A stretch of DNA of 63,267 bases from Clostridiales bacterium (lineage in GTDB: Bacteria > Bacillota > Clostridia > Lachnospirales > CAMVHY01), in assembly GCA_031265515.1 (NCBI GenBank), contig JAISCN010000047.1:1-63267 (forward strand), written 5' to 3'. Both the position numbers and the translations under genes were made by a program. Every line of letters starts with the position of its first letter. Position 1 is the first letter of the stretch. Below are positions 62,866 to 63,267 of the stretch, piece by piece. Under the pieces are notes generated by a model. The model made no database searches. It saw only the letters and a list, made by a program, of their open reading frames with translations, and was not told the DNA's origin.

Positions 62866-63267
62866 ATGGTCTACAAACAACGTAGTTCTAGAGAGAGAGA
62901 GAGAGAGAGATTTACTTTTCGTAATATTTTTTCTTTTGTCTTTTTAACTTTACTTTTTATTTTTTTATTTAATTTTAATTTTAATAGAAAAAATGTTTTT
63001 GCGGTGGAAAAATCGTCACGAGACTTATCAGACCACGATCCTTATGTTTTTAAATTTGAGATTGAAACAACAGAAGATAATGAAATTTATTATGTTCCTA
63101 CACAAGGACGAGTAGGTGGAAGTTTTAATGATTATAACTGGGATATTAATTGGGGAGATGACAGAACAGAAGAAGATATAAAAAGAGAAGAAAGCGATCC
63201 TGATCCTAGCAATTCCGGAATAAAACATACTTATGAAAATCCCGGATCATATATCATCGCTTTAACA
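62866..63267 (+). CDS. Surface-type repeat protein, paralog of 16119-17999, 5' part only (runs off the right edge). It has a signal/anchor peptide and a (GA)10 tract.
   Basis: This ORF is not in the supplied track. My translation from ATG 62866 (GGAG at 62851) is MVYKQRSSRERERERFTFRNIFSFVFLTLLFIFLFNFNFNRKNVFAVEKSSRDLSDHDPYVFKFEIETTEDNEIYYVPTQGRVGGSFNDYNWDINWGDD...GIKHTYENPGSYIIALT. It is collinear with 'GPYIFKFEVTIPEENKTFHVPTQGKVGGNFNDYNWNIDWGDG...GIEHIYKETKKYIITLT' of the 626-aa protein. Confidence 0.8.
   Translation, partial: MVYKQRSSRERERERFTFRNIFSFVFLTLLFIFLFNFNFNRKNVFAVEKSSRDLSDHDPYVFKFEIETTEDNEIYYVPTQGRVGGSFNDYNWDINWGDDRTEEDIKREESDPDPSNSGIKHTYENPGSYIIALT
62891..62910 (+). repeat. (GA)10 dinucleotide microsatellite inside the 5' coding region (codons 9-15, RERERER)
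   Basis: The sequence reads 'tcta gagagagaga gagagagaga ttt'. It lies between the start codon and the hydrophobic signal/anchor segment. Confidence 0.97.

Follow-up and report, generated by a model that had tools for sequence, protein, structure and literature searches.

Genomic context of the locus

The window analysed here, i.e., the whole stretch of 63,267 nucleotides, is an entire contig of a 'Clostridiales bacterium' MAG (sequencing run SRR14710922) with a G+C content of 26.6 %. Its gene content, comprising gyrA, clpB, dnaK-grpE, prfA-like genes, genes for two D-Ala-D-Ala carboxypeptidases, feoAB, comEC and a spoIIAB/sigma-F-like pair, fits the chromosome of a Firmicute of an endospore-forming lineage. 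The focal gene is cut by the contig end, so that its 5' part is available (Table 1); the translation of this part is identical to the protein of the MAG deposited at NCBI as LBJ93_03295 (partial; MDR1150620.1). The gene is preceded by a divergently oriented neighbour (61642-62667, minus strand), the 341-aa product of which is hydrophobic in its C-terminal region. This product has no match in Pfam or NCBIfam, and its only relative in a collection of 5.8 billion proteins was the protein itself.

Table 1. Features of the focal locus in coordinates of the window; stop codons of the shifted frames are given in present coordinates, i.e., at ten repeat units
Feature	Position	Strand	Remarks
Shine-Dalgarno-like AGGAG	62850..62854	+	11 nt upstream of ATG, read from the sequence
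ATG start codon	62866..62868	+	in-frame upstream stop TAA at 62818-62820
5' part of a predicted secreted/surface protein gene, 134 codons	62866..63267	+	gene cut by the contig end
(AG)10A microsatellite, proposed slippage site	62890..62910	+	codons 9-15, RERERER
TAA reached at -1 unit (-2 nt)	62922..62924	+	18-aa product
Hydrophobic core IFSFVFLTLLFIFLF, residues 21-35, putative signal peptide or signal-anchor	62926..62970	+	Kyte-Doolittle
TAA reached at +1 unit (+2 nt)	62945..62947	+	27-aa product
(TTTAAT)3 hexanucleotide repeat, FNFNFN	62968..62985	+	between hydrophobic core and putative cleavage site
Start of predicted exported part, all-beta N-terminal domain	63004..63267	+	BLASTP, alignment A3, pLDDT 80 model

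Three other observations on the contig are worth mentioning. (i) AddB is represented by a single 390-aa ORF (33176-34348, minus strand) matching ADDB_N, and the surrounding 4.5 kb (31750-36270) contain only short ORFs; this region may be a decayed addAB locus, hinting at eroded recombination repair. (ii) A 1009-aa protein with a calcineurin-like phosphoesterase domain is encoded at 3509-6538 (minus strand). Nested tandem repeats with periods of 18, 72, 87 and 186 nt (71-78 % matches) are located at 3978-4755 of its gene, and it may represent a length-variable, exported repeat protein. (iii) The ORFs at 54890-57589 (plus strand, 899 aa) and 7106-9418 (plus strand, 770 aa) have no Pfam or NCBIfam match.

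Start codon and repeat tract

Upstream of the ATG listed in Table 1, an in-frame TTG devoid of a Shine-Dalgarno sequence is found at 62836. Since both candidate starts are located upstream of the tract, the latter is coding and precedes the export signal in either case. No in-frame ATG, GTG or TTG is present between the tract and the hydrophobic segment, and no in-frame start with a ribosome-binding site is present farther downstream, the sole candidate there being the GTG of codon 47, which has no Shine-Dalgarno sequence. A simple consensus promoter scan revealed no credible promoter.

The beginning of the gene (62866-62930) reads ATG GTC TAC AAA CAA CGT AGT TCT (AGA GAG)x3 AGA TTT ACT TTT CGT AAT ATT and contains the perfectly alternating tract AGAGAGAGAGAGAGAGAGAGA (62890-62910, 21 nt, plus strand), readable as (AG)10 at 62890-62909 or as (GA)10 at 62891-62910. 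The perfect 20-nt GA tract proposed for 62891-62910 in the original prediction is therefore recovered, extending to 21 nt if counted from 62890, and its assignment to codons 9-15 is correct when counted from the ATG at 62866. These seven codons (AGA GAG AGA GAG AGA GAG AGA) encode RERERER, yielding the N-terminus MVYKQRSS-RERERER-FTFRNIFSFVFLTLLFIFLF, in which FTFRNIFSFVFLTLLFIFLF is directly C-terminal to RERERER.

A regular-expression scan identified (AG)10 as the only dinucleotide tract of more than five units in the whole window and yielded no second candidate tract. Second in length are runs of (AT)5, and dinucleotides other than AT reach four units at most. A first-order Markov model predicts about 5e-9 20-nt tracts of this kind for the window; when the window was simulated 200 times under a Markov model, AG/GA/CT/TC runs had maximal lengths of 3-5 units as compared to the ten observed. 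Chance is not an explanation for the tract. Both the supposed improbability of such a GA repeat in DNA of low G+C content (here 26.6 %) and its supposed uniqueness among dinucleotide tracts of the window, with (AT)5 as runner-up, are thus substantiated.

Reading frame and putative export signal

The gene was rebuilt in silico with 5-15 repeat units. With 7, 10 or 13 units the frame is open, in agreement with the expectation that the present length keeps the gene in frame (134 codons open to the contig end). With 6, 9, 12 or 15 units, translation proceeds to ...EIYFS and stops at the first TAA of the shifted frames listed in Table 1, while 5, 8, 11 or 14 units lead to ...DLLFVIFFLLSF and to the second one. 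The claim that loss or gain of one unit shifts the frame is hence borne out, stops being reached after 18 and 27 codons, respectively; a one-unit change in either direction therefore results in a short peptide of 18 or 27 residues and in no exported protein. Changes by three units only alter the number of Arg-Glu pairs in the N-region.

Residues 1-20 carry a net charge of +4 and are followed by the hydrophobic core at residues 21-35, in accordance with the predicted position of the tract upstream of a hydrophobic segment. The Kyte-Doolittle mean of the core (11-residue window) peaks at 2.7-3.1. A possible signal-peptidase site lies between VFA and VE after residue 46. Cleavage may occur at this site; an uncleaved signal-anchor is equally possible because of the long, charged c-region NFNFNRKNVFA. 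The hexanucleotide repeat in this region is in frame, so that slippage of (TTTAAT)3 would alter the length of the c-region without a frameshift.

The part of the protein downstream of the putative cleavage site corresponds to an N-terminal domain with the pattern FKFE..VPTQG..YNWxIxWGD..SGIxHxY..I.LT, common to a family of LRR surface proteins. The 88 residues retain the invariants of this family (P32, Y44, W46, W50, G51, I73, H75 and I85; alignment A3). An AlphaFold model of the domain, based on an alignment of 20 sequences, is all-beta with 8 strands at a mean pLDDT of 80. The designation of the protein as PKD-like could not be sustained: Pfam retrieved no family for the focal protein at E ≤ 0.01, a profile search against PDB returned PKD domains alone, all of them sub-threshold (E 0.36-0.8), and Foldseek with the pLDDT-80 model gave no match at E ≤ 0.001, the best one against PDB having E = 0.36.

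Relatives of the focal protein

The window harbours a single paralog (16119-17999, minus strand, 626 aa; 'InlB B-repeat-containing protein' at NCBI), the N-terminus of which shares 49-51 % identity with residues ~60-134 of the focal protein (BLASTP E 1e-26). In the paralog, BspA-like repeats (motif FNxPQNLTSVGxxFA) and then a C-terminal Listeria-Bacteroides (InlB B) repeat follow. About 90 relatives were found by a search with the paralog. The focal N-terminal domain matches most of them pairwise (BLASTP E 1e-15 to 1e-4; 27-42 % identity) and shares homology with the domain located ahead of the BspA-like LRRs in most of these family proteins. Ordinary signal peptides of the MKK type prevail among the relatives, several of which possess T9SS, dockerin or InlB B-repeat domains or carry LPXTG in their name.

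Judged by these similarities, membership of the focal gene in the widespread family of secreted/surface BspA-like LRR proteins appears well supported. A conserved N-terminal beta domain ahead of the LRRs is typical of this family and is shared by the focal gene; what sets the focal gene apart is the repeat, as no other member examined has a simple-sequence or dipeptide repeat at its N-terminus. From the original designation as a repeat surface protein, the secreted/surface character is made probable by homology, while the repeat (LRR) part, predicted from the paralog, would lie beyond the contig end. Within the LRR region of the paralog, a tandem repeat is located at 16899-17441 (period 198 nt, 2.7 copies), its unit corresponding to about two to three LRR modules. 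Such LRR-region repeats probably explain the end of the focal contig at 63267.

The start of the paralog coincides with the start of the focal mature part, and the paralog has neither a signal peptide nor a hydrophobic segment. Its TTG start codon is located 1 nt after GGAG, and an in-frame TAA is found 3 codons upstream of the TTG. The paralog could represent a 5'-truncated or silent copy, or a pseudogene. The region upstream of it (to 18300) was considered as a degenerate copy of the focal 5' region and discarded, since no homology is apparent in the alignment ahead of the mature domain. As the sole paralog in the window possesses neither a signal peptide nor a credible ribosome-binding spacing, the family may be decaying here.

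Search for further copies of the locus

Searching the 134-aa fragment against the collection of 5.8 billion proteins returned a match to itself alone, and an exact look-up of the 134-aa product yielded no record. No copy of the locus is present in the GTDB representative genomes, where the sole match was spurious (17 residues of the VPTQG..FNDYNW segment with 76 % identity; Muribaculaceae MAG JAFSYB010000125.1, 3001-3051). Likewise, JGI metagenome contigs contained no copy detectable by a protein pattern or by a variable-gap DNA pattern spanning the tract. The divergent neighbour gene was found only on the focal contig and on one Logan contig of SRR14710922. This Logan contig (29,751 nt) matches the window with 100 % identity over the 6,183 nt retrieved and terminates at 62824 within an A7 run (62819-62825), i.e., 41 nt upstream of the ATG and 66 nt upstream of the tract; the tract is covered by one assembly only. 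Since no 20-mer from 62760-63267 recurs within the window, repeats of the window do not account for the break of the Logan contig. The break could reflect a branch from polymorphism right behind it and ahead of the gene, low coverage or a k-mer also present in another contig, and is evidence neither way.

Coverage by a single assembly, the stop of the independent Logan contig at 62824 and the position of the locus 357 nt from the contig end could point to an assembly error near the contig end; similarly, the alternative in-frame TTG at 62836 could point to a true start elsewhere and a noncoding tract. An artefact of either kind is nevertheless highly improbable. With its 21 nt, the tract falls below the usual length of assembly k-mers, (GA)10 is no known Illumina artefact, and none of the 20-mers around the locus recurs in the window. 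Moreover, the observed length belongs to the one-in-three class that keeps the 124 remaining codons of the window open. With respect to the start, the ATG is provided with AGGAG, and both candidate starts are located upstream of the tract, with none between it and the hydrophobic segment.

Repeat as a feature of the DNA

Codon usage was determined from the 16,094 codons of 36 ORFs of the window, in which GAG accounts for 13.9 % of the Glu codons and AGA for 60 % of the Arg codons. All three Glu codons of the tract are the rare GAG, and RERERER would be spelled out as a perfect alternation of AGA and GAG with a probability of about 3.5e-4. In the part of the focal gene located 3' of the tract, 9 of 10 Glu codons are GAA. 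Neither RERE nor ERER occurs elsewhere in the 16,166 residues encoded in the window, and no N-terminal dipeptide repeat was found among the family homologues examined. On the basis of the GAG bias, the low probability of the alternation, the singularity of the dipeptide repeat, the preference for GAA downstream and the repeat-free homologues, the repeat is a DNA-level feature. It is not a requirement of the protein, as the homologues do without it.

These observations also bear on a role independent of tract length, be it as a charged (Arg-Glu)n N-region, as an mRNA pairing element or as a polypurine mirror repeat that forms H-DNA and thereby influences transcription or translation. The N-region is indeed net positive, as export signals require, and in the minimum-free-energy fold, the GA tract is paired with U/C-rich codons of the signal peptide farther downstream. 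Mirror repeats of the type (GA)n.(TC)n can form H-DNA (triplex). However, the fold is no better than those of shuffled sequences (z = -1.38; equalled or surpassed by 17 of 200 shuffles), no Rfam family matches, the usage of rare GAG argues against selection on the peptide, and the ~90 homologues have ordinary N-regions. Such a length-independent function is accordingly regarded as quite improbable.

With regard to homopolymers, the window contains 4 A/T runs of at least 10 nt, at 39680, 49486, 51002 and 59296, compared to 15.3 ± 3.6 expected from the Markov model, and none of at least 11 nt (expected: 6.9 ± 2.7). Shorter runs are in excess (7 nt: 293 observed vs. 186 expected; 8 nt: 104 vs. 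81), and the longest run of G or C measures 7 nt. Depletion of long homopolymers usually signifies selection against hypermutable tracts; prokaryotes generally avoid long repeats, and enrichment of repeats near N-termini marks phase variation (PMC3315296). The depletion of A/T runs in the window suggests a sharp selective ceiling on tract length. Given that runs of at least 10 nt are depleted, the DNA of the window is not generally permissive to long repeats and (GA)10 constitutes a local exception, which weakens the view of the tract as an accidental microsatellite, though this applies to the 63 kb examined.

According to that view, the tract is incidental: expanded by slippage and mutable, it would be tolerated rather than selected. 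The focal gene would be evolving fast and possibly decaying in the AT-rich genome of a host-associated organism, and may be heading for inactivation. In line with decay, no signal peptide is left in the sole paralog (16119-17999, minus strand), whose TTG start follows GGAG at a distance of 1 nt, and all that is preserved of AddB is an N-terminal remnant of 390 aa. In addition, the protein collection, the GTDB representatives and the JGI contigs provided no second copy by which the tract could be recognised as conserved or polymorphic. On the other hand, the tract is perfect, in frame and situated at the one position where a frameshift cleanly abolishes export, the depletion of long simple repeats in the window implies effective selection against accidental ones, and the 88 residues downstream retain the family invariants. 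An incidental origin is thus unlikely, while a certain weight is conceded to it because of the signal-less paralog and the AddB remnant.

Candidate slippage switch

The most plausible interpretation, held with a probability of roughly 0.6 and derived from sequence features, is that the tract represents a hypermutable repeat by which translation of an exported LRR-family protein is reversibly switched ON and OFF. Slipped-strand mispairing during replication would add or remove GA units. At 7, 10 or 13 units, the ATG would be in frame with the export segment and the mature protein (ON), whereas at other lengths a TAA would be reached after 16-29 codons and no exported protein would be formed (OFF). 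In-frame changes of length would only affect how many Arg-Glu pairs the charged N-region contains. With its 10 units, the assembled consensus would correspond to the ON state.

The locus appears to combine every sequence-level hallmark of a translational contingency locus and is a credible candidate for such a switch. We infer that slippage is frequent enough in this organism to be of use, that the gene product resides at the surface and that switching is adaptive. Intact MutS/MutL would make dinucleotide slippage much rarer; neither was detected among those ORFs of the window that were scanned against Pfam (part of all ORFs). On/off switching in Clostridiales is mostly ascribed to DNA inversion. 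No convincing inverted repeats suggestive of an invertible promoter were found at the locus, where only AT-rich matches of 70-77 % complementarity occur.

One may further speculate that an LRR adhesin is subject to SSR phase variation in an uncultured, AT-rich symbiont belonging to the Clostridiales, with the signal-less paralog 45 kb away serving as a silent donor and recombination varying the exposed domain. A repeat switch at the single export-competent site would then be combined with recombinational variation of the exposed domain. This extension of the slippage switch is doubtful and considered quite improbable.

A single locus in 63 kb cannot establish a genome-wide contingency strategy. 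If the tract varies, the classic contingency-locus strategy would operate outside the well-studied animal pathogens, in an uncultured member of the Clostridiales known from a MAG. The LRR protein would then be a surface component under fluctuating selection, exerted, e.g., by attachment to a host or partner, by phage receptor use or by immune or predator pressure. In practical terms, the tract length captured in an assembled consensus would decide whether the focal gene is annotated as 'intact' or 'pseudogene'. As a mechanism, such switching is textbook knowledge, so that the value of the locus lies in an extra example and not in a new principle.

Comparison with known phase-variable systems

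In Helicobacter pylori, CT repeats in the signal-peptide coding region of oipA (also of sabA and babA) set the ON/OFF state (PMC10564699). The candidate switch resembles oipA/hopH in that a dinucleotide repeat occupies the 5' end of the coding sequence near the export signal, where slippage would shift the frame. The state is ON in oipA (PMC10564699), and would be ON in the focal gene, if the final part of the signal peptide and the mature protein are read in frame, and OFF if they are not. The product of oipA is a surface adhesin-type protein, as predicted by homology for the focal gene. Proteins and cell envelopes of the two are unrelated: the Hop proteins are beta-barrel outer-membrane proteins of a diderm, the focal product is an LRR-family protein of a member of the Clostridiales. 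Furthermore, the purine strand is coding in the focal gene (GA, Arg-Glu), the tract is placed in the charged N-region instead of the hydrophobic core, and the tract is known from one assembly, whereas variation in H. pylori is documented in hundreds of isolates. Homology to Hop/OipA was considered and dismissed: there is no Pfam or NCBIfam match and the homologues are LRR surface proteins, so that the resemblance is mechanistic only.

In Streptococcus pyogenes, CAAAA repeats are located just after the start codon of scl2 (sclB), and the number of units leads to an in-frame product or to premature termination (PMC5005324). Like the focal gene, scl2 belongs to a Gram-positive bacterium (Firmicutes) and carries its repeat in the interval that separates the start codon from the signal sequence; its product is a cell-surface protein, as predicted for the focal one. 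It differs in the pentanucleotide unit and in encoding an unrelated, collagen-like protein; besides, variation among strains is shown for scl2.

Translational switches of adhesins are also known from Neisseria, with CTCTT repeats in the signal-peptide coding region of opa and poly-G in the signal-peptide region of pilC. The location of a translational switch in the leader-peptide coding region is shared with the locus described here, while opa and pilC differ in their repeat units, in their occurrence in proteobacterial pathogens and in their organisation as independently switching multigene families. In mechanism, H. pylori oipA is, along with sabA and babA, the closest counterpart in repeat type and position, and S. 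pyogenes scl2 the closest one among Gram-positive bacteria.
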